DNA of 64,000 nt from an uncultured Bacteroidota bacterium (GCA_903844815.1 CAIMVD010000101.1:4220-68219); one strand, 5' to 3'; counted from the stretch's first letter, positions 40,338 to 64,000 are shown. Translations and numbers: made by a program. Notes: generated from the sequence alone by a model not told the origin.

Positions 40338-41351
40338 TTAAATAATTTCTTTAAGTTTCACAGGTCTGCTCTCCAGATATGATTTTTTCGCAGCAATAGC
40401 AATTGCTACAGACATAAGTCCGTCGTAACCCGAAACGGGAAGAACCAGATTATTAATAATAGCGTTGCAAAATATTTTCATCTCATTAGCATAAGCTTCA
40501 AGATACCTGTCCATGAAGAAATTCAGAGGCAGGGCACCGTGAACTCCATCGCTACTGTAGAACCGGTGATTATCAGGAAAATTATTATCAGCACTGGCCA
40601 TACCTTTCGATCCGAATATTTCAACCCTCTGGTCGTAACCATAAACAGCTTTCCTGCTATTGTCAATCACTCCGATGGCTCCATTCTCAAAGGATAATGT
40701 AATAATTGCCGTATCAACGTCACCAGCCCTGCCTATTTCAGGATCTACAAGTACAGCAGCCTTTGTAAAGACCTCTGTAACCTCACTGCCGGCAATATAG
40801 CGGGCCATATCGAAATCATGAATTGTCATGTCCATAAACATTCCACCCGATACTGCGCTGTATTTGGCCGGAGGTGGTGCCGGGTCACGCGAAGTAATTT
40901 TAAGTATATGAGGTTCACCGATCTTTCCAGCTACAACCATCTGTTTAATTTTAAGAAAGTTAGGATCAAACCTCCGGTTAAAACCTACCATAAGTTTTAC
41001 GCCTGCCGATTCTACTGCCATTAAAGCCCCTTTTATAATCTCAAGCGACAGGTCAACAGGTTTTTCGCAAAAGATGTGCTTCCCGGCTTTTGCGGCATCA
41101 ACGATAATTTGGGCATGAGTGTCAGTAGATGAACATATTACAATGGCATCCACTCCGGAATGATTAATTACATCCAAATAGTTGCTATAGACTGATTTTA
41201 TGCCGAATTGTCCCGCAACCTCCTTTGCCGAATCAAGGTTTACATCGGCTACGGCAATAACTTCTGCCTGAGGTACATTTTGAACCAGAGTCGCAATGTG
41301 CACCTTACCTATGCGACCTGTTCCGATAACTCCAAGATTGATTTTTTCCAT
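40338..41351 (-). CDS. iolG: myo-Inositol 2-dehydrogenase
   Basis: GTGRIG, CEKPVDL, VGFNRRFDP, TSRDPAPP, DMTIHDFD and GYDQRVE. Confidence 0.93.
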   Translation of the reverse strand: MEKINLGVIGTGRIGKVHIATLVQNVPQAEVIAVADVNLDSAKEVAGQFGIKSVYSNYLDVINHSGVDAIVICSSTDTHAQIIVDAAKAGKHIFCEKPVDLSLEIIKGALMAVESAGVKLMVGFNRRFDPNFLKIKQMVVAGKIGEPHILKITSRDPAPPPAKYSAVSGGMFMDMTIHDFDMARYIAGSEVTEVFTKAAVLVDPEIGRAGDVDTAIITLSFENGAIGVIDNSRKAVYGYDQRVEIFGSKGMASADNNFPDNHRFYSSDGVHGALPLNFFMDRYLEAYANEMKIFCNAIINNLVLPVSGYDGLMSVAIAIAAKKSYLESRPVKLKEII

Positions 41352-41385
41352 TGGTATGATATTTTTTTGGTTTGAAGGGTTAAAA

Positions 41386-42285
41386 TTATAAGCTCAATGA
41401 TTTAAGGTAATTACGATTCCTGCCGGCACAAATTTCAGGATTTCCCATCCCGGGAAGCACATCCTGCTCCACGACTATCCATCCCGAGTATTCCTGATCA
41501 CGAAGTTCCTTTACTATTGCCGGAAAATCTACAGCGCCTTTTCCAAGTTCACAAAAAACTCCGCTGCCTACCGATTTGAAATAGTCCCAGCCTTCATTTC
41601 TTGATTGGTCTGCGATTTCAGGATGGCAATCCTTAAAATGAATATGCCATATCCTGCCATAATGATTCTTAAGCGCTGAAAGAGGATCGCCTCCGCCAAA
41701 CATATAATGGCCCATATCAAGTACAAGCCCTACAAGCAAAGGATCAGTGTATTCAAGAAGCTTGTCTATCTCAGCAGGTGTTTCAACATACCCTGCACAA
41801 TGATGATGAAAGACAGTGCGCAGGCCGGTTGATTTTTTCACTTCGGCGGCTACAAGATTCGCTCCTTCGGCAAAGATCTTCCATTCTGCGTCAGAGAGGC
41901 TCATTTCAGGTGTAATCCTTCCAGCGTTTTCAGTACGCTCTTTAATAGTACCGTTTTCATCGGCTAAAACGATAAATGCATCTTTATAGCCGGCATCAGC
42001 CATTAATTTTGCCGTTTTAACAGCTGCTTCCGCACCAGCAGCATGCTTTGATTTATCCTTCAGAAAAACCGGGACAAAGGCACCAACCATTGACAAATTT
42101 CTTTTTTCAAGTTCCGATTTCAGTTCTGAAGGAACAACCGGCATGAAACCCCAGTCTCCAAGTTCACTTCCCTCATAACCTGTATCGCGGATCTCATCAA
42201 GAACCTGGTCATAAGTGGCTGCTTTGCCTTCAAGATCAAATTCCAGGACGCCCCAGGAACATGGGGCATTAGCTATTTTTATCAT
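41386..42285 (-). CDS. iolE: Inosose dehydratase-like TIM-barrel protein
   Basis: ANAPCSWG, ELGDWGF, FHHH, DMGH, HIHFKD, FCELGKG and VVEQD; located in an iol operon. Confidence 0.85.
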   Translation of the reverse strand: MIKIANAPCSWGVLEFDLEGKAATYDQVLDEIRDTGYEGSELGDWGFMPVVPSELKSELEKRNLSMVGAFVPVFLKDKSKHAAGAEAAVKTAKLMADAGYKDAFIVLADENGTIKERTENAGRITPEMSLSDAEWKIFAEGANLVAAEVKKSTGLRTVFHHHCAGYVETPAEIDKLLEYTDPLLVGLVLDMGHYMFGGGDPLSALKNHYGRIWHIHFKDCHPEIADQSRNEGWDYFKSVGSGVFCELGKGAVDFPAIVKELRDQEYSGWIVVEQDVLPGMGNPEICAGRNRNYLKSLSL

Positions 42286-42315
42286 ATTAAGTTATTTATT
42301 TGGTACGTTAAAAAA

Positions 42316-43788
42316 TCAGAATTTTCTGCTCCACTCATCATGCCAGCGCTCAATGACAACCTTTGTCTGGGTATAGAACTCAATTGCATGCCCCGATTGT
42401 CCGTGCAGATCACCGAAGAAACTCTCTTTCCATCCGCTAAAGGGAAAGAAAGCCATCGGAGCCGCAATACCTATGTTTATCCCGATATTTCCTGCCAGCG
42501 CGTCGTGACGGAACTTCCTTGCTGCGGATCCGCTCCTTGTAAAGATGCATGCTGAATTTCCAAAACGGCTTTTATTGATTATCTCAATGGCAGCGTCCAG
42601 AGATGAGACATTTATTATTGTCAGTACCGGTCCGAAAATCTCGGTATTGTACAATTCACCATCCGGATCGACATTAGTCAGAACGGTTGGACCAATGAAG
42701 TTACCTTTTTCCAGGCCCGGGACAGAAATATTTCTGCCGTCGAGCAATAGGCGTGCACCTTCGGCAACACCTTTCTGTACTAGTTTTTCAATTCGTTCCT
42801 TGCTTTCAGGTGAAATCACCGGGCCCATTTCAGTCTCAGGCGACAATCCGTCGCCAGTCTTCTTCGACCGGGCAGCCTCTAAGATCTTTTCAGTAAAAAT
42901 TTCACCGGCACTACCCACTGTGATCACAACCGAAGCAGCCAGGCATCTCTGTCCGGCACATCCGAAAGCACTGTCGGCAATGATTCTGACGGTGGTTTCA
43001 ACATCGGCATCGGGCATCACCACAACAGGGTTTTTTGCACCGCCCTGAGCCTGAACGCGCTTGTTATATTTGACTCCGGTCTGGTAGATATATTTTGCCA
43101 CAGGTGAAGATCCCACAAAACTGATTGCTGGCACAAGCGGATTTTCGAGAATTGCATCTACAGTCTCCCTGCCACCGTGAACGAGGTTCAGCACACCCTT
43201 AGGAAGGTCCAGACCTTCAAAAAGTTCAAATATCCGGGCCATGGTCAGGGGAACTTTTTCCGAAGGCTTTACAATAAAAGTATTACCTGTAGCAATGGCA
43301 TAAGGCATGAACCAGAAAGGTATCATCACCGGAAAGTTAAAGGGCGATATACAAGCCCCGACGCCAAGCGGCTGACGTATATAGAACTCGTCTATACCTC
43401 GTGCAATATCTTCTGAAAAATCGCTCTGCATGAGTTTCGGAATGCCACAGGCAACTTCAATATTCTCAACGGCTCGTGTGATTTCAGCCTTTGACTCACC
43501 AAGTGTCTTCCCGCATTCCCTGGTGCATATTTCGGCAATCTCATCACCTTTAGCTTCAAGTATCTGCTTCATTTTAAAAAGATACTGAATCCTCTGCAAA
43601 GCAGGAGTATTTCGCCATGCAGGCCAGGCTTCATGAGCTTTTTCAGCAGCAATAATCACATCCTTCCCCGATCCTGCCGGGACCAGGGCAAGAAGCTGAC
43701 CTGTTGCAGGATTGATTACGTCGAGATATCCGGAACCGAGCGAATCAACCCATTCTCCGTTAATATAATTTTTAAGTTTAAGTGCCAT
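42316..43788 (-). CDS. iolA: CoA-acylating (methyl)malonate-semialdehyde dehydrogenase
   Basis: PFNFPVMIP, KPSEKVP, FVGSSPVA, QAQGGAKN, GCAGQRCLA and FFGDLH. Confidence 0.95.
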   Translation of the reverse strand: MALKLKNYINGEWVDSLGSGYLDVINPATGQLLALVPAGSGKDVIIAAEKAHEAWPAWRNTPALQRIQYLFKMKQILEAKGDEIAEICTRECGKTLGESKAEITRAVENIEVACGIPKLMQSDFSEDIARGIDEFYIRQPLGVGACISPFNFPVMIPFWFMPYAIATGNTFIVKPSEKVPLTMARIFELFEGLDLPKGVLNLVHGGRETVDAILENPLVPAISFVGSSPVAKYIYQTGVKYNKRVQAQGGAKNPVVVMPDADVETTVRIIADSAFGCAGQRCLAASVVITVGSAGEIFTEKILEAARSKKTGDGLSPETEMGPVISPESKERIEKLVQKGVAEGARLLLDGRNISVPGLEKGNFIGPTVLTNVDPDGELYNTEIFGPVLTIINVSSLDAAIEIINKSRFGNSACIFTRSGSAARKFRHDALAGNIGINIGIAAPMAFFPFSGWKESFFGDLHGQSGHAIEFYTQTKVVIERWHDEWSRKF

Positions 43789-43822
43789 TATTTAAATATT
43801 TCAAATTAGCAATTTTCAATTT

Positions 43823-45682
43823 TTAAAGGAAATACCGCTGTTTCTTCTTGTTCTCGGTATAAACTTCAAACGCCTTCTTAACTGTTTCAATTTCTGCAAC
43901 TTCCGAAACTGCAACTTCCCACCATGCATAGCCGGGAATACCCTTGTACAGGTCAGTCTCGATAGTAATAACTGTAGTCACTGTCTGTTTCTTTGCCTCT
44001 TCAATAGCAGATTTTAGTGAACTTATATCGTGTGCCTCAATTACGTTGGCGCCAAGGCTGCGGGCATTGCCTGCAAAATCGACCGGAAGAGTTTCACCAG
44101 TCAGTAACCCTGTTTTTTCATCGCGGTAACGGTATTTGGTACCGAAACGCTGTGACCCCACCGATTCCGATAATGCTCCAATGCTTCCATAACCGTTGTT
44201 ATTCAGAAGAATGATAATGAATTTTATCCCCTCCTGTATCGAAGTCACTAGTTCATTGTTCATCATCAGGTAGTTCCCGTCGCCAACCATTACGAATATT
44301 TCCCTGTCGGGGCAGGCCATTTTGGCTCCTATTCCGGCAGCGACTTCATATCCCATAGTAGAATATCCATATTCAAGATGGAATCCTTTGGGATCCGTTG
44401 TTCTCCATAGCTTATGCAGATCGCCGGGAAGGCTTCCTGCAGCGCAAAGAACCACATCGCGTGGCCCTGCAGCCTCATTTACAGCTCCTACAACTTCACC
44501 CTGTGTAACAGGACAGGAACCAGTGACTTTATAAAAATCACTTACCTGTTCATCCCATCTCCTGTTAAGGTCAGCTATCCTGTCAGTATATTCGGTCTGA
44601 GCATGGTAACCATCAAGCAGAACCAACAATTCTTCAAGACAGACTCTGGCATCTGCCGTCATTGGAAGAGCTGAATGTTTGAAGGAATCAAAATCGGCAA
44701 TGTTAATGTTGATAAATTTCACACCTGGATTTTGAAATGCTGTTTTGGATGCCGTTGTAAAGTCGCTGTACCTGGTGCCAATCCCTATCACAAGGTCAGC
44801 TTCGCCTGTTATCTCGTTAGCTCCAGGTGTTCCGGTTGCTCCGACTGCTCCGAGATTAGACGGATGGTTAAAAGGCAGTGACCCCTTTCCTGCAAAAGTT
44901 TCTGCAACAGGAATTCCTGTCAGATCAACAAAAGCTTTCAGTGCATCTGTAGCCTGACTGTAAATAACCCCGCCGCCGGCAATAATTACCGGCTTCTTTG
45001 AGGACCTGATCAAACCTGCGGCTTCCTTTGCAATTTCCCTGTCGGGTCGTGGCCTGGCAATCTTCCAGGTTCTTTTCCTGAAAAGCTCTTCAGGGAAATC
45101 ATAGGCCTCTGCCTGAACATCCTGTGGAATCGCAAGCGTTACTGCTCCCGTTTCGGAAGGAGAGGTCAGTACACGCATTACTTCGGGAAGAGAGGTAATC
45201 AACTGCTCCTGCCTGTTTATCCTGTCCCAGTATTTTGAAACAGGTTTAAAGCAATCATTCACTGAAATATCCTGAGTTGAAGCTGATTCCAGCTGCTGCA
45301 GTACGGGTGCCACATTCCTTCTGGCAAAAATATCACCGGGAATAATAAGCACCGGAATACGGTTTATTGTAGCACATGCTGCTCCTGTCACCATATTTGT
45401 AGCGCCAGGACCTATTGAAGAGATACAGGCGAAGGTTTGCAGACGGTTCTTCATTTTAGCATAGGCAATAGCAATATGAACCGATGCCTGCTCATTACGG
45501 GTCATATAATACCTGAAATCAGGATTTTCCATCAACCCCTCGCCTACCCCGGCAACTATTCCATGTCCGAATATGCCAAGGCAGCCTGCAAAGAACGGAT
45601 TTTCAACACCATCACATTCAACGTACTGGTTTTTCAGAAACCTTACAACCGCCTGCCCTACTGTCAATCTTATTGTTTTCAT
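43823..45682 (-). CDS. iolD: THcHDO hydrolase (ThDP-dependent ring-opening acylhydrolase)
   Basis: RLTVGQAVVRFL, GIFGHG, RNEQ, SIGPGATNM, AAGSLPGDLHKLW, EYGYSTMGYE and GDGNY. Confidence 0.95.
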   Translation of the reverse strand: MKTIRLTVGQAVVRFLKNQYVECDGVENPFFAGCLGIFGHGIVAGVGEGLMENPDFRYYMTRNEQASVHIAIAYAKMKNRLQTFACISSIGPGATNMVTGAACATINRIPVLIIPGDIFARRNVAPVLQQLESASTQDISVNDCFKPVSKYWDRINRQEQLITSLPEVMRVLTSPSETGAVTLAIPQDVQAEAYDFPEELFRKRTWKIARPRPDREIAKEAAGLIRSSKKPVIIAGGGVIYSQATDALKAFVDLTGIPVAETFAGKGSLPFNHPSNLGAVGATGTPGANEITGEADLVIGIGTRYSDFTTASKTAFQNPGVKFININIADFDSFKHSALPMTADARVCLEELLVLLDGYHAQTEYTDRIADLNRRWDEQVSDFYKVTGSCPVTQGEVVGAVNEAAGPRDVVLCAAGSLPGDLHKLWRTTDPKGFHLEYGYSTMGYEVAAGIGAKMACPDREIFVMVGDGNYLMMNNELVTSIQEGIKFIIILLNNNGYGSIGALSESVGSQRFGTKYRYRDEKTGLLTGETLPVDFAGNARSLGANVIEAHDISSLKSAIEEAKKQTVTTVITIETDLYKGIPGYAWWEVAVSEVAEIETVKKAFEVYTENKKKQRYFL

Positions 45683-45758
45683 TTTATAACAGAGTTCTTT
45701 ATATTGTTAATTAAGTGTCGTTTAGTTTAGTCTGGATAAAAAGTTTCTCACTCTTACT

Positions 45759-45823
45759 TTTTTACCCCACTGCCCCCAGGGGGGTGTTCTTAAATCCCCC
45801 CTTGGGGGGTTGGGGGGTAAAAA
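45759..45823. repeat. G/C-run REP-like nested hairpin between iolB and iolD
   Basis: ttttaccccactgcccccagggggg … ccccccttggggggttggggggtaaaa. There is an outer inverted repeat, and each arm contains a C5-6/G6 hairpin. Confidence 0.75.
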
Positions 45824-45942
45824 CACAAGAATAAAAGAGTGGTATTGGTGGTAAAATATTCCTTTCATGTTTGGTAATAATATTCCTTAACTAAATGCCA
45901 TTGATTGTTTATTCATGGATAATTTAACTCGTAATTCTGTTT

Positions 45943-46839
45943 TCAGGTTTTCAGGTTCATCTCCAGTGTTACTACCGGCACCCTGGGGTCCATCGCCTTC
46001 CAGGTACCGTAGATCCACTCATGGTCAGGATCGTTGCTGCTGGCAAGGCTCTGATCGGAGCCTGCAAGGAAATTAAGATAGTAGACGTTGTAACCATGAC
46101 CGGCCACCACAGGATGGTATCCCTCAGGTATAAGTACCACATCATTGTTATGAGCCTCGGCAATCTCATCAAGCGTCCGGCTGTCATTGTATACCTTCTG
46201 GATTGCAAAGCCCCGGGGTTTGTCGATCTTATAAAAATAAATCTCCTCCAAGTCCGCTTCCTTCAGAATACCAGTAGTAGGATCTGTTTTCCTCGTATCG
46301 TGCTTGTGAGCAGGAAATGAGCTCCAGTTTCCTGAGGGAGTATAGACTTCAACGCATACAAGGTGGTTGCATGGTGAACCGGGTGGAAGGATGCTGTTGA
46401 TCTGACGGCTGGCATTATCGCCACCCCTGTATTCGATACCCAATGAATTAACGTCGGAAGGAGTCATAAGCCTGGCAGGAAAACTTTTCTCCGCAGGGCA
46501 CCAACCGCAGGCAAGGTCCAAAAGTTCTCCGGCAGCCGAAATTTCAAACTCAGTATCCGGCGGAAGGTATAAAGCATGAGGAAGGCCTGAAAAAACATTA
46601 CGCCGTGCATCAGCTGTTGTCCAACTCCCCTTCGAAGTATTGGCAAACATATTGCCGCCAAGAATGACAAAGAGGTATTCACTACTTCCGGTTTCACCCG
46701 ACCATTTTTGGCCGGGCTTTAAAGTCCTTGCAAGGAAATTCAGATTCTTCCATCCTGCTTCAGAAGAGCTAAGATGCTGGTAGATCTCTTCTCCGGGAGA
46801 AGATTTTGCCAGAACCTTACATTTTTTATCACGATTCAT
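45943..46839 (-). CDS. iolB: 5-Deoxy-glucuronate isomerase
   Basis: LVCVEVYTPSGNWSSFPAHKHD, LEEIYFY, VLIPEGYHP and YYLNFLAG. Confidence 0.95.
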   Translation of the reverse strand: MNRDKKCKVLAKSSPGEEIYQHLSSSEAGWKNLNFLARTLKPGQKWSGETGSSEYLFVILGGNMFANTSKGSWTTADARRNVFSGLPHALYLPPDTEFEISAAGELLDLACGWCPAEKSFPARLMTPSDVNSLGIEYRGGDNASRQINSILPPGSPCNHLVCVEVYTPSGNWSSFPAHKHDTRKTDPTTGILKEADLEEIYFYKIDKPRGFAIQKVYNDSRTLDEIAEAHNNDVVLIPEGYHPVVAGHGYNVYYLNFLAGSDQSLASSNDPDHEWIYGTWKAMDPRVPVVTLEMNLKT

Positions 46840-46852
46840 TGCTAAATTACTT

Positions 46853-48661
46853 TTACCAGAAAAAATAATAGAGTGAGGCCAGTATACCGCAGATCCCTAT
46901 CGCAGCAATGTTGAAAGTCATTGACGTATGAAAAATACCGCTATGAAGGTTAATGCTCGCTGAATCTTTCTTTTTAAGAGTATTATTCAGAATCATTATG
47001 AGACCTGTAAGAATTATCATAACAATCGGCACATAAATTGCTTCAAGTGCCAGATTCCTGAGCGGATGAACAAAGAAGGCGGATATGATACCTGCAAGCA
47101 TTGCAACTGCAATAAGTTTATAGCCGATCTTAATAATTTTAATGCCTTTATTACCGTCAAAGACATTTTCAACCTTTCGTGTCTTATCCATAAGGCTCAT
47201 ACCGACCATCACGAACGAAAGAAGTATGAAGACATATCCTATCCTGAGGACGAAAGGCATTTCGGGGAAGCATATCTTCATCACCAGTCCTAGTGGGATT
47301 GTAAGCAATGCGGTCCAAAGAGCTGCTTTAGAAGAAGATTGTCTCCAAAACAGGCCACAGAAGAAGATCAGAAACTCGCCAGGATAAATGAACCCGGTAT
47401 ATTCCTGAATGTACTGGTAAGCCTGATCGAGAGATCCCAGTTGGGGAGCAATTATTGTTGAAATTGTAAGGGCAACAAGCGCCACTATCTGACCTACCTT
47501 CACCATCTGCCTGTCAGTAGCATTCTTATTGATGTAGCTTTTATAAATATCCATCGTAAAAATGGTAGAAGTACTATTCACAATTGAACTTATTGAAGAG
47601 ACAGCCGCAGCCGCAATAGCAGCGAATGAAAGACCTGTAATACCAACCGGTACAATATTCCGGATAAGCCATGGATAGGCTTCATCGGATTTTCCAAGTT
47701 TTGCCCCTAATGCAAAGACAGCTATACCCGGGATTACAACCAAAAGCGGGATTAAAAGTTTCAGATAGCCGGCAAATACAACTCCAAGCTGGGCTTCCCT
47801 TATTGTTTTTCCTGCAAGCCCCCTTTGAATAATGAATTGATTGAATCCCCAGAAGCTAAGATTGGTAAGCCACATCGAACCAAGTACTACACCAAGACCA
47901 GGAAGATCTGAAAAGGCGTCTTTGAGACCACCTTTCCCATCAGGGGCAAAGAGAGTTCCCTTAGAAATTATCATATGAAATTTCTGCGGAGCTCTGCTTA
48001 TCAATTCGTTAAATCCGGCTAAAACTCCGTGACCATCGCTTAAGGCATTAAGAGCAAATCCGGTTGTAATAAGGCCTCCAATTATCAAAACAATTACATT
48101 TATTACATCTGTCCAGGCAACTGCTTTCATTCCGCCCCATAATGAGTAGAGTGCCGAAAATAAAGAAAAGCCTATAATCCCGTAAATCAATGGTATCCCG
48201 ATGATTCGTTCCATTGCCAGAGCACCCAGATAAATAACCGCAGTCATGTTTACAAAAATGTAAACGAGGATCCAGAAGACTGCAAAAACCGTACTCACCC
48301 TTTTATCATACCGGTCCGAAAGAAACTGCGGCATCGTAAATATGCCCTTCTCAATGAAGACAGGGAGGAAATACTTAGCTACAAATATCAGACAAATGGC
48401 AGCAATCCACTCATAAGCGGCGATTGCCAGACCTATCGCATAACCCGACCCCGACATAGCAATGAAATGCTCTGCCGAAATATTTGCTGCCAGGAGTGTT
48501 GAACCGATAGCCCACCAGGGGAGCGAACGTCCGGCCAGAAAATAGTCATCCGAAGTCCTCTGTTCTCCTTTTTTCTTGCGGGAAACCCATAGACCTACGC
48601 CTACAATGATTAAGGCATAAACAATAAAAATAATCCAGTCGAGTAAAGCAAATTCTTTCAA
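46853..48661 (-). CDS. Sodium:solute symporter (vSGLT-type), probable inositol uptake
   Basis: YFLAGRSLPWWAIG…ANISAEHF, AYEW, WGFNQFIIQR, AAAVSSISS and YIQEYTG. Confidence 0.9.
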   Translation of the reverse strand: MKEFALLDWIIFIVYALIIVGVGLWVSRKKKGEQRTSDDYFLAGRSLPWWAIGSTLLAANISAEHFIAMSGSGYAIGLAIAAYEWIAAICLIFVAKYFLPVFIEKGIFTMPQFLSDRYDKRVSTVFAVFWILVYIFVNMTAVIYLGALAMERIIGIPLIYGIIGFSLFSALYSLWGGMKAVAWTDVINVIVLIIGGLITTGFALNALSDGHGVLAGFNELISRAPQKFHMIISKGTLFAPDGKGGLKDAFSDLPGLGVVLGSMWLTNLSFWGFNQFIIQRGLAGKTIREAQLGVVFAGYLKLLIPLLVVIPGIAVFALGAKLGKSDEAYPWLIRNIVPVGITGLSFAAIAAAAVSSISSIVNSTSTIFTMDIYKSYINKNATDRQMVKVGQIVALVALTISTIIAPQLGSLDQAYQYIQEYTGFIYPGEFLIFFCGLFWRQSSSKAALWTALLTIPLGLVMKICFPEMPFVLRIGYVFILLSFVMVGMSLMDKTRKVENVFDGNKGIKIIKIGYKLIAVAMLAGIISAFFVHPLRNLALEAIYVPIVMIILTGLIMILNNTLKKKDSASINLHSGIFHTSMTFNIAAIGICGILASLYYFFW

Positions 48662-49887: not shown

Positions 49888-50112
49888 ATTTTAATTCACA
49901 TATACTATTTTTACATTCTTACCATTCTATGGTGATATTTTAGCATTTTTCGAATATATCCCAAAGCATCAGGCTAATTTGAGTAATTTACTGTGTGAGT
50001 ATTTGTAATCAGTAACAGAATTATCAATTATGTTAATTTACTTCCCCCATGAGAGATAGCTGTTAAGTTAAGCCAAGATAGAAAACGGAAATATAGAGAT
50101 TTAAAAAAATCG

Positions 50113-50259
50113 GACTGTCAAAAAAGTCCTCCGTGGTCCTCAGTGGCACCTCTGTGGTCCTCTGTGAAAGTTCTTAACAGTTTGTTACACAGAGATCCAC
50201 AGAGAAGGCACGGAGATCCACAGAGGCCTGAAGTTAAAATTCGTGCTTTTTAGACAGCC
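50113..50259. mobile_element. MITE-like element of about 147 bp containing a four-unit hairpin
   Basis: Ends gactgtcaaaaaag and ctttttagacagcc form a 12/14 inverted repeat. Internal arms of four 10-nt units lie at 50128-50168 and 50187-50226. No clear target-site duplication. Confidence 0.45.
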
Positions 50260-56500: not shown

Positions 56501-56910
56501 CCGGTTCTTCAACTCCTGAATTGTCTGACTACAAACATGTCTCAACTATTTTGTACATAGAAGACAATCTTTCGAATATAGAACTGGTTGGAGAAATCAT
56601 GGCTGAACATCGGCCGGAAATCCGTCTTATAACATCAGTTTACGGGAAGCAAGCCCTCAAACTTGCGGAAGAGCATAAGCCCGGTTTAATACTGCTCGAT
56701 CTCGATCTGCCCGATGTGCAGGGACGAGAAGTCCTGGAACAATTATTGACTGATGACAGTTCAAAAGCAATTCCGGTAATCATCATCAGTGCCGATGCCA
56801 TGCCGTTTCAGGTTGAAAAATTGATGAAAGCAGGCGCTATGGATTATTTAACAAAGCCGTTAGATATCGTTCAATTTCTGAGCACCATTGAACGGCACCT
56901 TAAAATTTAA
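53518..56910 (+). CDS. Multi-PAS hybrid histidine kinase (PAS x5, HisKA, HATPase, REC)
   Basis: Repeated (D/N)ITxRK PAC ends, SHELRTPMN, QVLINLLGNAIKY, GTGLGL and C-terminal YIEDN…LDLDLP…KP. Confidence 0.95.
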   Translation: MKNSKESSRILLRQKAEELLKMKYPGSGSQLTEDESLRLIHELEVHQIELELQNEELMNALSMAEAANVKLIGLYDQTVVDISDCRDVEKKLQDIIDKNPISIQILDINGYTIQTNSAHLNLFGAAVPQGYSLFQDPQLIQQGLGEYFDRIINGEVVFFPDSYFNAHEVDPSFPDIPVVIKTTGFSLADGNGITEKIVLMQENITERNHAQQKLQASEEMYHAIFQGSHDGILIADSTSKMITYANAAQCHLFGYTEEQFKTMDIAAIHPQDTFTHTLAEFESMLHGKTSLAENIQCLKRNGEIFYADISGALISINGKTQLLGFFRDITTRKNAENALKGSEEKYRKDLIFLQSILESPINIVIFSIDKNYCYTKFSVSHKETMRKIWGVDIQIGMNMLDLIANPEDRKKAKNNFDRAFKGDFFMLTEEYGDKELSRIYYDNYYNPVNDDEGNIVGLSVFVLDVTQRKQAEMKIIELNTNLELTVSKRTAQYQEALSRLEKIADRVPGVVYQFQMNPDGSSCFPFTSEGIHDIYRVFPEDVVNDASIIFSRIHPDDYNGVVASIQASAKDLTLWQHEYRVRFDDGTVRWLSGNAKPQTEADGTIIWHGFISDITERKLVEDDLKESTERHRGLSEAAFDSIFFSEKGICIEQNRMAEKIFGYTNEEAIGRYGTDWIIEADRKTVMDNMIAGHEEPYEVTALRKDGTTFPCMLSGRMMYYKGRNVRVTSLSDITQRKQAEEALIKAKSEAVKANQAKSEFLSRMSHELRTPMNSILGFAQLMQMAELTPKQTKAVNHILNNGRHLLNLINEVLDISGIEAGRQNLTPEPVQLSSFINEITDGIQVAANKRKISIWLVDSPANSLFALADRFRLKQVLINLLGNAIKYNSEGGSVTIRTARQPANEQGLTNIRISISDKGNGIRPEDIGKLFQPFERIGADRTETEGTGLGLMVVKKLTEAMNGTVGVESEVGTGSTFWIELPFTENNQPDVSQSPGSSTPELSDYKHVSTILYIEDNLSNIELVGEIMAEHRPEIRLITSVYGKQALKLAEEHKPGLILLDLDLPDVQGREVLEQLLTDDSSKAIPVIIISADAMPFQVEKLMKAGAMDYLTKPLDIVQFLSTIERHLKI

Positions 56911-56969: not shown

Positions 56970-57890
56970 ATGAAGCCATTTTATCAGAAACTGGCAGTTG
57001 CTCCAACGCAATCAGTATTATTTTATAATGAAGAAAAACCTCATTTTACCGTTCAGTGGCACTATCATCCGGAGATTGAGATTCTCTTCGTTGTAAAAAG
57101 CTCAGGTTTATGTTATGTGGGCGATGGAATACATCGTTTCACAGAAGGCGAGATCAGCATTATCGGCGAGAATGTACCTCACTGGTGGAAAAGCGATGCA
57201 AGGTATCTTGATCCCAACTACACTCATGGTATCAAAGCCCAGATAATTCAATTCAAGAAGGAGATCTTTGATTCCAATTTCATAAACCTTCCTGAGATGA
57301 CGGCCATAAAGGGGCTGATAGGCAAATCGCAAAGGGGAATCCAGTTCAGCGGAAAATGCAGGAAAATGCTCGGGGACCAGATACAGAAGATCTTCCGGCT
57401 TTCCGGCTTAAGGAGAATCACCGAGCTGATTATCCTGCTGAATATGATGGCAAATGCCGAAGAATACGATTACCACTCCAGTATAGGGTATTCCAGGATT
57501 GTTAACTCCTACGATTTTTCCCGATTCAACATTATTCATGAATACATAATCCGAAACTTCGCAAAGCCAATAAAACTCGAAGACATTGCTGCGAAAGCAA
57601 ACATATGTCCCACAGCATTCTGCAGGTATTTCAAACAGCAAACGGGCCGGACATTTGTCTCGTTTCTGAACGAGATCAGGATCGGTTATGCATGCAAGCT
57701 AATGATCGAAGAAAAACTTCCCGTTTCAATAGCCTGCAGTGAAAGCGGTTTCAACAACCTGGCCCATTTCAATAAATTATTCAAAAGGTTTTTTGGCATG
57801 AGCCCCACCGAATACCTGCGGTCGTACCATCTCAGGGAAAAACCTGTAATGGAATATTCAAAAATGGGTTTTTTAGCTCAGCATGAATGA
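56970..57890 (+). CDS. AraC family transcriptional regulator (cupin plus HTH)
   Basis: WHYHPEIEI cupin; IAAKANICPTAFCRYFK and GFNNLAHFNKLFKR HTHs. Confidence 0.95.
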   Translation: MKPFYQKLAVAPTQSVLFYNEEKPHFTVQWHYHPEIEILFVVKSSGLCYVGDGIHRFTEGEISIIGENVPHWWKSDARYLDPNYTHGIKAQIIQFKKEIFDSNFINLPEMTAIKGLIGKSQRGIQFSGKCRKMLGDQIQKIFRLSGLRRITELIILLNMMANAEEYDYHSSIGYSRIVNSYDFSRFNIIHEYIIRNFAKPIKLEDIAAKANICPTAFCRYFKQQTGRTFVSFLNEIRIGYACKLMIEEKLPVSIACSESGFNNLAHFNKLFKRFFGMSPTEYLRSYHLREKPVMEYSKMGFLAQHE

Positions 57891-57927: not shown

Positions 57928-59091
57928 TCATTTTGCAGGTTGAAGCAGACCTGATATTTTCCTGAAGACATCAGTATTTTCATAAATTCCTGCGAACTCC
58001 TCAGCGCCCGGCCCATAGGCATAAACAGGTACCAAAATACCCGAATGGCCTGTTGTCGAAAAATTACCTCTAACGGTTCCTGTACTTATGCTTCCATCTA
58101 GAAGGGTAAGTCCCCCGGTTTCATGGTCGGCAAGAATAATAACAAGGGTATGTCCGTCTTTTTCAGCCCACTGCATAACCTTTCCAATAGTCCTGTCAAA
58201 ATCAAACACCTCTTCCACAAGGGCAGGCATATCATTTGAATGGCCGCAATCGTCGATCCTTGAGCCCTCGTACATTGCAAAAAAGCCTTTGCTATTCCGG
58301 CTCAACAGGCTGAGACTATGCATTACTGCCCTGGCAAACAAGTCTCCACGCTCAGGGGCAAGGGGCAACTGACCCTCTTCAGGAACAGAAAAAACCTTGC
58401 CATAGGTTATCCTTTCAGTCTCTTCCCAGGTAGTGCAAACCTGATATCCCTTATTCTTCATTTCATTAAGAAGGTCACGCTTATCGGTTCTCTTGTTGAA
58501 TTTCTCCCGTCCTGCCCCAAAAATATAGTCGACATTGCAATTCAGATAATCAGCAGCTATTTCCTCCTCCCTGTCGCGGTCAACGTTATTTGCACAAAAT
58601 ACCGAAGGCGTGGCATCCGACAAATTGCAGGTGACTACAATACCTGTCGACAACCCGCCTGCATGGGCAAGGTCGGTCAGGGAATTGAGGGGTTTCCCCT
58701 CCGTATCTACTGAAATACAATGGTAATTTGTCTTGCTCCCGGTAGCCATAGCAGTTCCTGCAGCACCAGAATCGGTTATCAGCTTATCGGCACACCATGT
58801 TCTTGAAAATCCTGAATATGTGCAATTGTCGATATTCAGGCTGCCATGATTGGCCACCCATGCTGCAGAAACCTGAACAAGTCCCATACCGTCGCCAATC
58901 ATGAGAATAACATTTTTTACCGATTTCCCTTTTACCTTTTTTACTTTTACGGTTTCATAGGGCTTTGTTACAGTGTATAAAGACTTATCAGGCAATGATG
59001 CAGGCACTGTCTGGCACACGAGCAGCTTTGCCGGCAGAAGTAATGCAAAAATCAGAGGAATAATCTGAAAATAAATCTTTTTGCTTCTCAT
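57928..59091 (-). CDS. Alkaline phosphatase (PhoA-like), secreted
   Basis: IGDGMG, TDSGAAG (catalytic Ser), EGSRIDDCGH, ADHETGG and GHSG. The Met at 59091 precedes a signal peptide; the ORF track start at 59139 overlaps the upstream stop. Confidence 0.92.
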   Translation of the reverse strand: MRSKKIYFQIIPLIFALLLPAKLLVCQTVPASLPDKSLYTVTKPYETVKVKKVKGKSVKNVILMIGDGMGLVQVSAAWVANHGSLNIDNCTYSGFSRTWCADKLITDSGAAGTAMATGSKTNYHCISVDTEGKPLNSLTDLAHAGGLSTGIVVTCNLSDATPSVFCANNVDRDREEEIAADYLNCNVDYIFGAGREKFNKRTDKRDLLNEMKNKGYQVCTTWEETERITYGKVFSVPEEGQLPLAPERGDLFARAVMHSLSLLSRNSKGFFAMYEGSRIDDCGHSNDMPALVEEVFDFDRTIGKVMQWAEKDGHTLVIILADHETGGLTLLDGSISTGTVRGNFSTTGHSGILVPVYAYGPGAEEFAGIYENTDVFRKISGLLQPAK

Positions 59092-59135
59092 ACTATAGTT
59101 CTGGTAGTTAATAACGAAATCATCAATCCGGATAA

Positions 59136-59918
59136 TCATTTATTTTTGTTATTAAGAAATCCTGCCAATTCATTTACACGGTCGGTATTAATAAAGTCCA
59201 CCCCAAGGCCTTCAAATGTTTTCCATGCATTTTCGCCATCGGGAGCATTCCAGAACCTTATTTTCCTTTTCAGATCATGGACTGAATCAATTACATGCAC
59301 AAGCCTAGATTTGTCGGCTGCCGGCATCTCACCTTCGCCTCTCCATTTGGTGAATACTGCCAGGTTTTCGCTGAAAAGGGGAACTCTTTCAAGCTGTTTC
59401 TGGTTATAATTCCCGTTAAGAAGGCCATCATATAAGATAAATTCAGGGTAGGAGGTGAATCCGGAAGGCTCTGGCCTGTTTCCGGAAATTACCACCATTA
59501 CTCCGTTTGGGTTGACTTTAAGATCGAAAACATCAGGATATTGGCCCAGCTTCTTAGCCAGTATCGAAAGCGTCGGCTCTGCCAGGGTCTTCAGATCGAT
59601 CAGCAACTGGAAAGTCCCCGGAAAGTCGTACCAGGCCTTCCCCTTATTGTGCCTGAAGAGTTTTACTATTGGATTTATGTATAACGCGTCGAGAGTAAGT
59701 TCAGGCTTTATCTGTGATCTGTCGTGGGCCACCAGTAATTCGCCGTTAACCGCCCAGATATCAGCCTCTATTGATCCGAAGTGGCTATAATATGCCAGCC
59801 AGAAAGGTATATCATTACTGTAGTCATTGTGCGAATGAGCATTCAGTGTCGAATACTGGGCAGGTGCTGTTGCGAAAAAGCAACTAAGAATGATGATGGA
59901 AAAAAGAATTCTTTTCAT
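59136..59918 (-). CDS. Secreted PI-PLC/GDPD-like phosphodiesterase (HSHNDY family)
   Basis: Signal peptide, NAHSHNDY, SIEADIW, LLVAHD, LLIDLK, RFW and VDFINTD. Confidence 0.8.
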   Translation of the reverse strand: MKRILFSIIILSCFFATAPAQYSTLNAHSHNDYSNDIPFWLAYYSHFGSIEADIWAVNGELLVAHDRSQIKPELTLDALYINPIVKLFRHNKGKAWYDFPGTFQLLIDLKTLAEPTLSILAKKLGQYPDVFDLKVNPNGVMVVISGNRPEPSGFTSYPEFILYDGLLNGNYNQKQLERVPLFSENLAVFTKWRGEGEMPAADKSRLVHVIDSVHDLKRKIRFWNAPDGENAWKTFEGLGVDFINTDRVNELAGFLNNKNK

Positions 59919-59937
59919 ATCAGTACTGTTTTTTGTA

Positions 59938-62900
59938 TTATTTTATTTTAGTCAAAGGTGAATCAATTTTCATTTCTTTTTCTATCTCCCCTGGGGTTAA
60001 AGGTTCAGAAAATAATTTAAAACAATCAATACTGCCATTAAAGAACCTCGAATCGGGAAATTCTTCATTTCGACCCAGATTCCATTTCGCAGTTGTTGCA
60101 AGGATGGAATTCTCACCTGTGTCAACCATTCCTTCCTCTTTTCCGTCAATATATATTCGTAGTATTCTGCCTTCACACACTCCTGCAATATGATGCCACT
60201 TATTATTCCATCCGGAAGGTAACATAACCGTACAACTTCCCCTGCCCCACCCTCCGGCAAAAAAGGATATCGACCTGTTTCCTGATGTTTGAATAACATT
60301 ATAATCTCCTTGTGTAATAATATCGGAAAGTCCTGAGTTTTTAACCGAAGGAAAGATCCATGCCATAACAGTAAGATTATTTCCTGAAATAGAAGCAGAT
60401 GGACTATTCTCAAATTCTGCATAACAACCACCATCTGTTTTCAGCCCCGTACCATTCTTCGGAGGCGCTTCAACATCACGAATAATTATAGCATCATTCT
60501 GCAAACCAGACCTGTCATCCACTTTCTTCCCTGACCTGTCATTGGGAAATTTGATATCGATTATCTTCGAATCAGTGTTTAAAAGATATGTTTTAACACG
60601 GACCGATTCGCTTCCAGCTCTCATTAAATGAATACCTGCCTCGGCAATCCTGACAGTATGAGTAATCTTTTTCAGCTCTCCAGGCCTCAGATCCACAATA
60701 ATGCTGCTAATAAGTGAATCATCAAGAAATACCTGGGTTTTCATACTGTCACGAAACCCTCCTGCATTTCTGACCGAATATGAGAATTCACTATTATTAT
60801 TCACCCTCAATAGCGGAGTTATTTCTAGATCAGTAATCTCAGGACTTGCTGCAGGTGCCATCTCATTCTTCACGATTTCAATATTTTTTTCTTCAAGATC
60901 ATCTATTGTGTAGCTTCTTTTCCCGACAGGAAAAAATCTGCATTCAATCGAGTCGTACTTCACGACGCCAGAATCTGCAAGCACGCTCTTCGCCGAATAT
61001 TCCTTTCCATCAATGTAAAGCCTGAAAGTCTTAGCCCCGAAACTGCCTGAATTAAGATAAGAAAACCCAACCATACATTTTTCTCCGGGCTCTGCTGATG
61101 GTTTAGTGCAATTGAAATCCCGAATTCTGAAAGAGGCTGGATTTTTTGTCAGGGAAGGGATTTCATCCCTGGAAAAAGCCAACATAGCTGACGCAGGTTT
61201 GTCTGTCATACTGAAAACTATTTCTCCTCCCCGGGCCAAATCAGGATGCAATATCCAGGGTTTCCCTTGATCAGTTCCATTCAGCGAAAATGATTTTACA
61301 TAAACATTTTCGCTGCCGTTATTCTCCGATCTGATAACCAGCTTTTTGCCATTATGAAAATGAATCGTCACTTTTTTGAACAGAGGGGATCCGATATCAT
61401 AGACAGGCCTGCCAGGACATACAGGAAAGAATCCCATTGCACTGAAAACGAACCACGATGACATTGATCCGAGGTCATCATTGCCTGGAAGTCCGGATGG
61501 AAACGCCGTATAATGAGAACTCATAATTTTCCTTACCCATTTCTGTGTTTGATATGGGGCCCCTGAGTAATTAAAAAGGTAAGGGACATGAAGAACCGGT
61601 TCATTGTCGAAGGGTATTTTTCCATTTTCCAGGGCAAAATCAAGTCTCTCAGCAAAATCTTTCTGTCCGCCGCTAAGATTTATAAGATCAACAGGGTTAT
61701 GAGGAACAAATAACGAATAGCTCCATTTGTCACCCTCCTTGTATCCAAAACAGGCAGATTCTGAGATGAAATCTGACCCGTCCCGCGGCACAAGGAAAAG
61801 AGTTGCCGGGTCGATAAGGTTCCTGTAATTTAAGCTTCTTTGAATAAGCCGTTTGTATTCAGCGCCATTGTTCATGACCTCCCCGGCAAAAACGGCAAGA
61901 GCCCAGTCATTGTAGGCATATTCCACTGTTCGTGTTACCGATTCTGAATAAGATGAGGGCACATACCCTGCTTTTGAGTATGCAATAAAATCACTACCGG
62001 AATTGGATTCATCGGTCATCGATTTCATTGCGTTAAATGCCAGGGTGCTGTCGAATCCACGTACTCCCTTCATCCATGAATCAACAATTATTGGTATTAC
62101 ATGATTGCCTGTCATAGGGCCTTTAGGTAACCTTCCTGTTTGTTCATAAGTACTTAACAATGAAAGAATCATATCCCTTTGCCTTTCCGGTTCCAGAATA
62201 CAGAGCAGGGGATGCAATGTCCGGAAAGTATCCCAGGGCGAAAAAGAACCATACTGGTAAGCGCCTTTTGTTCTGAAGATCTTTCCTCCTGCACCCATAT
62301 ATCTGCCTTCGACGTCTGAAATCACGTAAGGCAGCAGCAGTGAATGGTAAAGTGCAGTATAAAATACTGTCTTATTTATAGTTGATGTATCCTCAACCTC
62401 AATGACTTTCAGTTCCTTTGCCCATCGATCCCGGTTACTTTTCCTGAACGATTCAAAACTCCATCCGGGTGCTTCCGCATCAAGATTCTTCTGTGTACTT
62501 ACCTGACTTACAGTTGAAGCACTTATTTTTAATAACAAAATATTATTGTTCCCGGAAGACGGAAAGAAAGTAAGAATATTTCCGTCACCTGTCTTTCTGA
62601 CAAGTTCAGGTTTCCTGTTAAAAATGATTTTTGTATTGAACAATTGACCTTCAATTACCGAATCGGAACGAACAGTCAGTTTACCAATGTTTCCGATGAA
62701 AATCGAAGGTTTGACTCCAGCTGGAAAGGTTATTCTAAACATGCCTGCCCTGACTGAAGCAGTTGCCTCAACCGATGTTCCGTCATCATTCAGAATAACT
62801 GAATAAAATCCGGGTTCTGATTTTTCCTGGCTGTGGCTGAAGGGTCTGCAATATTTCCCGGGCTGAAAACCGGAAGTATCGCTTACCGGCATAATATGAA

Positions 62901-63225
62901 TATTTCCCGATGAGCCTTCGGGATAACCGCTTTTATGGTTAAGACAGCTGAAAAACAGGATAGAGGTGTCGTTATAGTCATATCCGGCGGATGGAATTGT
63001 CCTTGTTTCGGGTGAAAGCTGAATGTATCCGAAGGGGGCGACTGCACCAGGATAAGTCCCGCCTTCGGACCCCCATCGTGAAAACGTCCTGGTTTTTGTC
63101 GTTCCGATAAAGGGATTAACATACTTAAGAACATCTTCCTGTGAAAAGAGGAATGATGTCCATTGTGTTAACAGGCAAATCAGCAAAAGGTATCGTGAAA
63201 CTTTAACGGGCACTATGTATCTCAT
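59938..63225 (-). CDS. GH92 alpha-mannosidase with C-terminal Ig-like and LamG/ConA-like domains
   Basis: YVNPFIGT, FYTALYH, FSPWDTFRT, SRT-like VTRTVEY, EGDKW, NEP and GNDDLGSMSSWFVF; C-terminal WHHIAGV LamG-type motif. Confidence 0.92.
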   Translation of the reverse strand: MRYIVPVKVSRYLLLICLLTQWTSFLFSQEDVLKYVNPFIGTTKTRTFSRWGSEGGTYPGAVAPFGYIQLSPETRTIPSAGYDYNDTSILFFSCLNHKSGYPEGSSGNIHIMPVSDTSGFQPGKYCRPFSHSQEKSEPGFYSVILNDDGTSVEATASVRAGMFRITFPAGVKPSIFIGNIGKLTVRSDSVIEGQLFNTKIIFNRKPELVRKTGDGNILTFFPSSGNNNILLLKISASTVSQVSTQKNLDAEAPGWSFESFRKSNRDRWAKELKVIEVEDTSTINKTVFYTALYHSLLLPYVISDVEGRYMGAGGKIFRTKGAYQYGSFSPWDTFRTLHPLLCILEPERQRDMILSLLSTYEQTGRLPKGPMTGNHVIPIIVDSWMKGVRGFDSTLAFNAMKSMTDESNSGSDFIAYSKAGYVPSSYSESVTRTVEYAYNDWALAVFAGEVMNNGAEYKRLIQRSLNYRNLIDPATLFLVPRDGSDFISESACFGYKEGDKWSYSLFVPHNPVDLINLSGGQKDFAERLDFALENGKIPFDNEPVLHVPYLFNYSGAPYQTQKWVRKIMSSHYTAFPSGLPGNDDLGSMSSWFVFSAMGFFPVCPGRPVYDIGSPLFKKVTIHFHNGKKLVIRSENNGSENVYVKSFSLNGTDQGKPWILHPDLARGGEIVFSMTDKPASAMLAFSRDEIPSLTKNPASFRIRDFNCTKPSAEPGEKCMVGFSYLNSGSFGAKTFRLYIDGKEYSAKSVLADSGVVKYDSIECRFFPVGKRSYTIDDLEEKNIEIVKNEMAPAASPEITDLEITPLLRVNNNSEFSYSVRNAGGFRDSMKTQVFLDDSLISSIIVDLRPGELKKITHTVRIAEAGIHLMRAGSESVRVKTYLLNTDSKIIDIKFPNDRSGKKVDDRSGLQNDAIIIRDVEAPPKNGTGLKTDGGCYAEFENSPSASISGNNLTVMAWIFPSVKNSGLSDIITQGDYNVIQTSGNRSISFFAGGWGRGSCTVMLPSGWNNKWHHIAGVCEGRILRIYIDGKEEGMVDTGENSILATTAKWNLGRNEEFPDSRFFNGSIDCFKLFSEPLTPGEIEKEMKIDSPLTKIK

Positions 63226-63315
63226 AAAGGGCGCAAAGGAATAAAAGGAAATTACTGATTTTAAGAAATCCTGACCTTAAAATTAAGATAAGATTTATTA
63301 AACCTTCAAAAAAAA

Positions 63316-63361
63316 TCAGGGAAGAATCAAACCTCTAAAAAGATCTGAAAATCTTCCCTGA
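63316..63361 (-). terminator. Stem-loop between susD and GH92
   Basis: tcagggaaga (63316-63325) pairs with tcttccctga (63352-63361). Confidence 0.45.
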
Positions 63362-63383
63362 CAAATATTCAGGTATTCAGGGC

Positions 63384-63998
63384 TTATCTTGCTCCCGAAT
63401 ATCCGGGATTCTGAGTGATAGAACCGCCACTATTGTCAATTTCCCTCTGTGGATATGGCATCAGCTTATGAATTGCAGGGTTGAATGTTCTGACAGGCTT
63501 GTAGGTACCCTCAGCCGGAAGGCTGTTATACACTTCGGCTGCAAGTCCCCAGCGAACCAGGTCGAAATGCCGGTCGCCACCTTCAAAAGCAAGTTCCATC
63601 TTGCGTTCGTACATCAGGTTATTGAAGTTCGGGGAGGCAATTGCAGGAAGACCGGCACGTGTACGCACCAGATTGAAAGGTACTGCAGCAGCAGCAACTC
63701 CTGTAGTTCTCGATGCAGGTCCGCCACCGTTAAGCATCATTATGGCTTCAGCATCGATAAGCAGAATATCGGAATATCTCAGGGCAGGTACATTCAATCC
63801 TGCTGCCCAGCTTGAATATTCTTCTGCATAAGGCGACATATACTTTATGCATACGACGTCCGACTGGTTATTCGGAGCCTGAAGCACATCGGTGGAGCCG
63901 TTATAGGTAACAACATCAACGCCCCTTTTTGCCACTGTTGCTGCTTTACGGGTGTCGCCGGCCTGATATGCATTATAGAAAGCATTTGTAGCACTTAC
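63384..63998 (-). CDS. susD: RagB/SusD family outer-membrane lipoprotein (5' part outside the window)
   Basis: LRYSDILLIDAEA, ERKMELAFEG…RHFDLVRWG and PYPQREID; the frame is open to the window edge. Confidence 0.93.
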   Translation of the reverse strand, partial: VSATNAFYNAYQAGDTRKAATVAKRGVDVVTYNGSTDVLQAPNNQSDVVCIKYMSPYAEEYSSWAAGLNVPALRYSDILLIDAEAIMMLNGGGPASRTTGVAAAAVPFNLVRTRAGLPAIASPNFNNLMYERKMELAFEGGDRHFDLVRWGLAAEVYNSLPAEGTYKPVRTFNPAIHKLMPYPQREIDNSGGSITQNPGYSGAR

Positions 63999-64000
63999 AA

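Follow-up and report, generated by a model that had tools for sequence, protein, structure and literature searches.

A candidate AraC-governed locus joining inositol phosphodiester import to inositol catabolism in an uncultured Bacteroidota bacterium

Membrane lipids linked through inositol phosphate, such as phosphatidylinositol (PtdIns), the glycosyl inositol phosphorylceramides (GIPC) of plants, the mannosyl inositol phosphorylceramides (MIPC) of fungi, the phosphatidylinositol mannosides (PIM) of actinobacteria, and glycosylphosphatidylinositol (GPI) anchors, are major components. To our knowledge, almost nothing is known of the consumption of their head groups by bacteria. The question is raised by a stretch of 64,000 nucleotides (the window) from an uncultured Bacteroidota bacterium (GCA_903844815.1, CAIMVD010000101.1:4220-68219), in which genes for a SusD protein, a GH92 alpha-mannosidase, a phosphodiesterase (PDE), and a PhoA-family alkaline phosphatase lie close to an operon for inositol catabolism (iol). 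Are these neighbours parts of one system, and what might that system consume? The DNA runs that contain the stretch are lake-water metagenomes; the genome is metagenome-assembled, belongs to the Bacteroidales, and comprises 6.37 Mb in 411 contigs, of which contig C101 carries the stretch. A first-pass annotation of the window had suggested that PDE, phosphatase, and GH92 supply inositol to a sodium:solute symporter (SSS) and the iol operon, and had named coincidental adjacency as the alternative.

We estimate a probability of roughly 0.6 that the locus forms one regulon, controlled by an AraC-type protein and composed of three operons, which imports soluble myo-inositol phosphodiesters as a source of both phosphorus and carbon. 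The operons would be SusC2-SusD2, SusC1-SusD1-GH92-PDE-PhoA, and TAL-SSS-IolB-IolD-IolA-IolE-IolG, in which TAL is a transaldolase-like gene. Phosphoinositol lipids would supply the candidate substrates, head groups of glycerophosphoinositol type and probably their alpha-mannosylated forms. We infer this choice of substrate, the order of the steps, the side of the phosphate that the PDE would cut, and the effector of the AraC protein. A head group would pass through the outer membrane via SusC/D-type pairs, lose its alpha-mannose to the periplasmic GH92, and be cut at the diester by the metal-dependent, phospholipase C (PLC)-like PDE, after which PhoA would free the phosphate. Free inositol would be imported by the SSS symporter and broken down via IolG, IolE, IolD, IolB, the TAL-like aldolase, and IolA. 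The AraC protein, which has a cupin domain, would activate all three promoters by way of a 40-nt site whose two direct repeats stand 21 bp apart.

Linkage of the phosphodiesterase to inositol catabolism

Homologues of the PDE were collected from one genome per species, which gave 79 loci. Identity to the PDE is 49-65% in metagenome-assembled genomes of Bacteroidales/Prolixibacteraceae type and 42-49% in Chitinophagaceae. Searches of these loci with the proteins of the window (tblastn, within 10 kb of the PDE) identified PhoA in 26 (adjoining the PDE or fused to it), SSS in 20 (71-84% identity, with one additional homologue at 34%), SusC2 in 20, SusD2 in 16, AraC in 16 (60-74% identity), IolD in 16, IolB in 14, IolA in 13, TAL in 11, GH92 in 9 (46-52% identity, directly upstream of the PDE), and a metallo-beta-lactamase (MBL)-fold gene in 5. 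A GH38 alpha-mannosidase and a histidine kinase, which in the window also lie near the iol operon, were each found in 0/79. Overall, iol genes occur within 10 kb of the PDE in 20 of the 79 loci and at 15-20 kb in 3 more, a total of 23 within about 20 kb. The synteny that the first-pass annotation had advised checking is thus seen in relatives for PDE, PhoA, and GH92, and not for GH38.

The linkage was also assessed by searching for IolD in the whole genomes behind 50 Bacteroidia-type loci. An intact copy is present in 34, and in 22 of these it lies within about 20 kb of the PDE, where chance would place it in less than 1% per genome. The 22 include three loci at 15-20 kb on the same strand (L021, L025, L043) and one in which the contig ends in SSS (L024).

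Various arrangements bring the genes together. For example, the PDE stands directly before SSS in L040 and L059, with gaps of 7-10 nt, and heads the iol operon; another arrangement is PDE-AraC<-SSS. A glycan-rich order, SusC2-SusD2-(MBL)-(DUF3863)-GH92-PDE-GH63like-GH125-PhoA-(calcineurin-like)-AraC<-SSS-iol, is also found, and in L021, L034, L043, L048, and L056 PDE and iol are separated by entire glycosidase sets. In a genome of another family (G277), a PDE of 33% identity closes the canonical operon IolJ-IolB-IolC-IolD-SSSlike-IolA-IolE-IolG. Within the same genus, the PDE is present in three other genomes. In one of them (G010), the same TAL-SSS-iol operon follows 2.4 kb downstream of it, and GH92, PhoA, and GH38 are missing from the interval. 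Another same-genus genome (G183, which holds locus L012) has the PDE beside a fucosidase and retains an IolD remnant with 7 in-frame stops (contig C5, 340705-341547), which suggests that the iol operon was lost and the PDE kept.

In a maximum-likelihood tree of the PDE, the iol-linked members are scattered over the Bacteroidia clade, and well-supported branches force at least 10 changes; the linkage has therefore been kept or regained through rearrangement and was not simply inherited once. Co-occurrence was examined in 401 evenly sampled genomes of the order, in which IolD is present in 7, the PDE in 20, and both in 6. The PDE is thus found in 6/7 IolD-positive and 14/394 other genomes (one-sided Fisher p = 4.7e-8). 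Phylogenetic inertia was considered as the sole cause of the linkage and rejected, given the differing arrangements and the 33%-identical linked PDE in another family. A functional link between PDE/PhoA/GH92 and the iol genes is strongly supported. Linkage conserved in many arrangements, and co-occurrence far past chance, dispose of coincidental adjacency; together with a common operator and a recent preprint (both described below), they uphold the earlier suggestion that the three enzymes supply inositol to SSS and the iol operon.

A separate observation from the tree concerns locus L068, on a contig labelled as a Citrobacter freundii metagenome-assembled genome. Besides SusC genes, this contig has a PDE-PhoA fusion of Chitinophagaceae type; it is probably mis-binned, since it groups with Chitinophagaceae.

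The phosphodiesterase and its importer partners

Annotation of the PDE by sequence is sparse. Pfam covers only its last 30 residues (PF13653), the NCBIfam scan gave no model, and a profile of the family matched no solved structure among the PDB sequences. The mature part opens with YSTLNAHSHNDY, and the motif AHSHNDY occupies residues 27-33. An AlphaFold (AF2) model (pLDDT 88) has the fold of a PLC-like TIM barrel, and Foldseek matched it to sphingomyelinase D (SMase D; 1xx1), glycerophosphodiester phosphodiesterases (GDPDs; 3no3, 2pz0, 3qvq), and PLC-delta with probability 1.0 and a TM-score of ~0.5. Residues H28, H30, E51, D53, H65, and K110 are invariant among homologues and position 108 is D or E, so that the TIM barrel, two histidines, and acidic metal site typical of the GDPD/PLC-like superfamily are all present. 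The spacing matches that of the SMase D set His12 / Glu32-x-Asp34 / His47 / Asp91-x-Lys93. Because of this fold and the invariant residues spaced as in SMase D, the modelled protein is most likely a metal-dependent phosphodiesterase. It thus shares with the GDPD/SMase D/phosphatidylinositol-specific PLC superfamily the fold and the two-His plus Glu/Asp/Asp/Lys set, and differs in the lack of sequence matches to solved structures, the TM-score of only ~0.5, and a PF13653 match limited to the C-terminus. Many stand-alone homologues are labelled 'alkaline phosphatase' by JGI, probably an annotation carried over from PDE-PhoA fusions.

The only experimental work that we found is a preprint of September 2026 on Flavobacterium johnsoniae, which treats the SusCD-phosphatase module as phosphorus scavenging (bioRxiv 10.64898/2026.09.03.749221). 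It reports that PusCD1 and PusCD2 are needed for growth on PtdIns or glycerophosphoinositol (GroPI) as phosphorus source, with an auxiliary role for Pus2 on both compounds. PusD2 binds GroPI and inositol monophosphate (IP1), and its conserved, Asp-flanked tryptophan W297 stacks on the inositol ring. The pus2 locus encodes PhoA1 (Fjoh_3249), in which a PhoA domain is fused to an uncharacterised PF13653/cd08577 domain, together with an extracytoplasmic function (ECF) sigma/anti-sigma pair. The authors speculate on inositol-phosphoglycans from GIPC; iol genes, mannosidases, and carbon use appear nowhere in the preprint text (bioRxiv 10.64898/2026.09.03.749221).

By analogy, SusC2/D2-PDE-PhoA appears to be a version of this F. 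johnsoniae phospho(inositol)lipid system, Pus2, in which the fused protein is split. Both place a SusC/D-like pair beside PF13653 phosphodiesterase and PhoA domains (adjacent genes here, fused in Fjoh_3249), both have periplasmic enzymes with Sec signal peptides, and both would act on phospho(inositol) compounds. Relatives of the present locus resemble Pus2 still further, having ECF/FecR pairs and fused PDE-PhoA proteins (583-643 aa in 23 related loci). SusC2/D2 orthologues of 59-78% identity occur in the relatives' loci, directly before the PDE in about 16. Most loci that hold a SusD2 have one of 66-78% identity, two Chitinophagaceae included. Within the SusD2 motif NKGWGQYNGWG, W294 and W300 are near-invariant. 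SusC1/D1 were also considered as orthologues of the relatives' SusC/D pairs and rejected, their identity being only 25-38%.

The two systems differ in several respects. PDE and PhoA are separate genes here, a second SusC/D pair and GH92 are present, and an AraC operator takes the place of an ECF pair: no ECF sigma/anti-sigma genes lie upstream of SusC2 in this genome, and they are present in 9-11 related loci. Furthermore, a complete inositol catabolic operon is attached, which would allow use of carbon as well as phosphorus. What appears from the genes to be new is this joining of a Pus-type module and polysaccharide utilisation locus (PUL) with iol genes, which would lead inositol phosphodiesters by way of the periplasm into central metabolism, with a single AraC operator in control. 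Synteny, co-occurrence, and operator tie the SusCD-phosphatase module to the full catabolism of inositol; alpha-mannosidases are often attached as well. If the proposed regulon is real, the entire head group would be used (mannose, phosphate, and inositol). The locus also offers a testable function for the uncharacterised PDE family, an AraC operator, and candidate enzymes for the mannosyl-inositol bond.

One of those PDE neighbours, the secreted MBL-fold protein (Lactamase_B_3-like) found in 5 loci, is fused to the N-terminus of the PDE in locus L010 (genome G103), as a single 598-aa protein. It has no relative among PDB sequences, and might open a cyclic inositol phosphate.

The AraC operator and the iol operon

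AraC is a conserved partner of the iol operon: in 14 loci its gene and the first gene of that operon, SSS or a SusC, are divergently oriented. These 14 intergenic regions have in common a 40-nt motif, AATGCTAAAATAGCATTAYATGNRGNYAAAATYGCAAAAG, which holds two direct repeats, G[CA]TAAAAT, at a spacing of 21 bp. A position weight matrix (PWM) built from the relatives' 14 AraC-iol sites, with this genome's own sites excluded, was used to scan both strands of the genome. The top three matches genome-wide are all in this locus, before SusC1, SusC2, and TAL, and all are oriented with the downstream genes (Table 1); the next match, elsewhere in the genome, scores 16.6 bits. The site before TAL has the direct repeats GCTAAAAT and GGTAAGAAT, 21 bp apart, and the SusC1 and iol sites are similar across about 45 nt. 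At each site, TAnnTTTG or TAnnTTTa lies 26-28 nt past the second repeat. The consensus of the Bacteroidota -7 box is TAnnTTTG. The motif was not found in loci without AraC, and many relatives have an ECF sigma/FecR pair before SusC2 instead of the operator.

Other approaches to transcription gave little. A scan for sigma-70 promoters and terminators was uninformative for Bacteroidota promoters, a terminator-like match after GH38 being its only useful output. In one lake metatranscriptome run, four short contigs mapped on the locus, too sparse for co-expression; contigs 100% identical to PhoA and SusD1 are weak evidence of transcription.

The iol operon itself is unusual. According to a survey from 2022, just 3% of Bacteroidetes species have iol clusters, and most families of the group have none (PMC9430895). 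Like the canonical clusters of that survey, the present one has IolG, IolE, IolD, IolB, IolA, and a transporter in a single operon. It differs from them in its AraC-type regulator, in its coupling to outer-membrane import and predicted periplasmic release of inositol from a phosphodiester, and in having a transaldolase-fold enzyme instead of IolC and IolJ (PMC9430895). No homologue of IolC (PfkB) was found genome-wide at E<1e-10, and no IolJ at the locus; the core genes IolB, IolD, IolE, IolG, and IolA are clustered, and of an iolB/C/D/E set only IolC is missing. The TAL-like gene occupies the place held by IolC and IolJ in relatives, and the absence of IolC would fit a kinase-free cleavage of 2-deoxy-5-keto-gluconate. 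TAL is present in 11 loci, IolJ (a class II aldolase) and IolC in 3-4, and both together in none; the loci concerned by this alternation include L017, L034, L037, L047, and that of G277 (L099).

Mannosidases, competing substrates and locus layout

Mannose as part of the substrate is suggested by the company that the PDE keeps. Besides GH92, its neighbours in relatives include GH125 (9 loci), a GH63/mannosylglycerate-hydrolase (MGH1)-like enzyme (15 loci), DUF3863/3864 (5 loci), and a calcineurin-like phosphoesterase with PA14 (8 loci). Representative GH125, GH63-like, and DUF3863 sequences that were examined have twin-arginine leaders, so that their expected place of action is the periplasm, once the substrate has been imported. 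Soluble alpha-mannosyl-inositol-phosphate head groups are, from this gene content, a plausible substrate. An extended form of the proposal would be a dedicated, AraC-governed 'inositol-phosphoglycan utilisation' system of Bacteroidia, comprising import of mannosylated head groups, trimming by GH92, release by the PF13653 enzyme, and kinase-free iol catabolism. The head groups would be those shed from fungal MIPC/GIPC, actinobacterial PIM or lipomannan (LM), or GPI anchors, and in relatives GH125 and GH63-like enzymes would assist GH92. We put this form forward tentatively, at somewhat less than even odds; if true, it would open a further class of nutrients to PUL-type systems and add an enzyme activity not known before. 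In glycan-rich loci, the space between AraC and the PhoA or calcineurin-like gene holds the gene for a conserved secreted protein of 725 aa without a Pfam match (u11; L056:15504-17681 and 4 other loci), a candidate for a new glycosidase that would act on the inositol-linked sugar.

An alternative is that the locus handles only plain inositol phosphodiesters and monoesters (GroPI, and IP1 from PtdIns), as Pus2 does, and that GH92 and SusC1/D1 serve an unrelated alpha-mannoside. GroPI, PtdIns, and IP1 are the only compounds for which the family has experimental data, and many loci have PDE and iol, or SusC2/D2-PDE-PhoA, without any glycosidase; the missing GH125 and GH63-like genes of this genome point the same way. 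Even so, GH92 is just 19 nt from the PDE in a tight operon with an operator-bearing promoter, and GH92, GH125, and GH63-like genes recur beside the PDE in independent loci. We regard the restriction to plain esters as unlikely.

The enzymes also invite comparison with the yeast alpha-mannan PULs of Bacteroides thetaiotaomicron, which combine SusC/D import with periplasmic exo-alpha-mannosidases (GH92, GH38, GH125) and phosphatases (PMC4978465). In those systems the GH38 enzyme BT3774 cleaves Man-1-phosphate and alpha-1,2-Man in yeast mannan, and dedicated phosphatases strip sugar-6-phosphate (PMC4978465). On this model the locus would be a PUL for phosphomannan or phosphorylated high-mannose glycans, with GH92 and GH38 acting on mannose, PDE and PhoA acting on Man-1-P/Man-6-P, and the iol genes adjacent by chance; orthologues of the window's GH38 are indeed found in SusCD-GH38-GH92 PULs. 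We consider it highly improbable. The PDE-iol linkage and co-occurrence go far past chance, the PDE of several species is inside an iol operon with no glycosidase close by, and an operator is common to the SusC operons and iol. Moreover, the B. thetaiotaomicron PULs have endo-enzymes of GH76/GH99, a domain absent by Pfam from every gene of this locus. Those PULs differ further in having sugar-6-phosphatases of endonuclease/exonuclease/phosphatase (EEP) fold in place of a PLC-like PDE and PhoA (PMC4978465), and the present locus is set apart by its link to inositol catabolism.

Several points weigh against the regulon proposed here. The substrate, the product, and the induction are predictions from the genes of a lake-water metagenome-assembled genome, and the orthology of SusC2/D2 to PusCD2 of F. 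johnsoniae is proposed from common architecture. In 12 of the 34 genomes that have both PDE and intact IolD, the two are unlinked, 2 at about 70 kb and 10 far apart or on another contig (several contigs among these ten are short). The upstream regions of SusC2 and GH92 in relatives are without the operator, which is found there only at the iol promoter, and the evidence for joint regulation of three operons thus comes from this genome only. GH92 is the sole mannosidase of the regulon because GH125 and GH63-like genes are absent from the genome, and sets of GH92 plus phosphatase also act on yeast phosphomannan (PMC4978465).

A second mannosidase would be available if GH38 belonged to the system, as the first-pass annotation had it. 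GH38 could be a working member, recruited by insertion to replace the relatives' GH125 and GH63-like enzymes: it is secreted, it sits between AraC and the iol operon, and the genome lacks both of those genes. This is doubtful, given that GH38 has no operator upstream in the genome-wide PWM scan, forms a divergent pair with a kinase that relatives lack at this position, is separated from iol by a probable hairpin terminator, and is adjacent to the system in no relative examined. Its orthologues (61-67% identity) are present in 24/32 relatives, hundreds of kb from the PDE or on other contigs, and likewise far from iol. Among 8 such loci, SusC is upstream in 3 and a different GH92 (~30% identity) is adjacent in 5. 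GH38 was accordingly rejected as a conserved member, being absent from PDE loci and having orthologues in SusC/GH92 settings elsewhere, and it is probably outside the inositol system. GH38 and the PAS kinase together resemble a block that was inserted later between AraC and iol, and the long inverted repeat (~100 nt) followed by a T-run in the GH38-iol gap is, from its sequence, a likely terminator or insulator. By analogy with BT3774, the window's GH38 may serve a task of the yeast-mannan kind. One relative's locus (L097, G156:C38) has three tandem GH38 paralogues, 65-67% identical to that of the window, plus a distant GH38 and a GH92.

The layout is given in Table 1, from a listing of open reading frames and Pfam/NCBIfam scans, which recovered every gene named by the first-pass annotation at its place. 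Upstream of SusD1, where that annotation had advised a look beyond the window, contig C101 carries SusC1, then a second pair, SusC2/SusD2, and then the MBL-fold gene, all of which precede the order SusD1-GH92-PDE-PhoA. A SusC/SusD pair and a carbohydrate-active enzyme in one operon, as in a PUL, are present as SusC1-SusD1-GH92, whose intergenic distances are 18 and 158 nt. Signal peptides had been noted on GH92, PDE, PhoA, and GH38, and all four do have basic-hydrophobic N-termini as judged by eye; the real start of PhoA is likely Met17 (~59091), immediately ahead of its signal peptide.

Table 1. Features of the locus and putative operators. Positions follow the numbering of the 64,000-nt stretch; figures above 64000 lie on contig C101 beyond its end, in the same numbering.
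Feature	Position	Strand	Basis
IolG, Gfo/Idh/MocA inositol dehydrogenase	40338-41351	-	PF01408, PF22725
IolE, xylose-isomerase-like TIM barrel	41386-42285	-	PF01261
IolA, malonate-semialdehyde dehydrogenase type	42316-43788	-	PF00171
IolD, thiamine diphosphate (ThDP) enzyme	43823-45682	-	PF00205, PF02775, PF02776
IolB	45943-46839	-	PF04962
SSS, sodium:solute symporter, presumed inositol importer	46853-48661	-	PF00474
TAL-like gene, transaldolase/FSA fold	48680-49786	-	PF00923
Putative operator, third PWM match	49908-49947	-	23.3 bits; 122 nt before TAL start
Long inverted repeat (~100 nt) then T-run, GH38-iol gap	50112-50226	-	sequence; terminator-like match 50129-50112
GH38 alpha-mannosidase, secreted	50311-53217	-	Pfam
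Hybrid histidine kinase PAS-HisKA-HATPase-REC, PAS-rich, cytoplasmic	53518-56910	+	Pfam
AraC-family regulator, cupin + helix-turn-helix (HTH)	56970-57890	+	Pfam
PhoA-family alkaline phosphatase	57928-59139	-	PF00245 E=4e-62
PDE, 260 aa, predicted periplasmic PLC-like/GDPD-superfamily phosphodiesterase	59136-59918	-	PF13653 (GDPD_2)
GH92 alpha-mannosidase, C-terminal LamG, signal peptide	59938-63225	-	PF07971 E=5e-141, PF17678, PF13385, TIGR01180
SusD1, C-terminal part (full gene to 64874)	63384-64000	-	Pfam SusD_RagB
SusC1, operon head, beyond window	64893-68030		contig C101
Putative operator, best PWM match	68231-68270		29.6 bits; 201 nt before SusC1 start
SusD2, beyond window	68716-70278		contig C101
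SusC2, beyond window	70298-73576		contig C101
Putative operator, second PWM match	73687-73726		23.6 bits; 111 nt before SusC2 start
MBL-fold gene, beyond window	73953-75020		contig C101

Two further features of the window were noted. The PAS kinase has several PAS domains and a receiver, lacks an output domain, and is followed after 60 nt by the AraC gene in the same orientation; in relatives, orthologues of the kinase are missing from all 79 PDE loci and its pairing with AraC was not seen. G/C-rich long inverted repeats, built of cctctgtgg... units and C6/G6 runs, occur in the GH38-TAL (50128-50226) and IolB-IolD (45700-45900) intergenic regions, and may be elements similar to repetitive extragenic palindromes (REP-like) and possible terminators or insulators.

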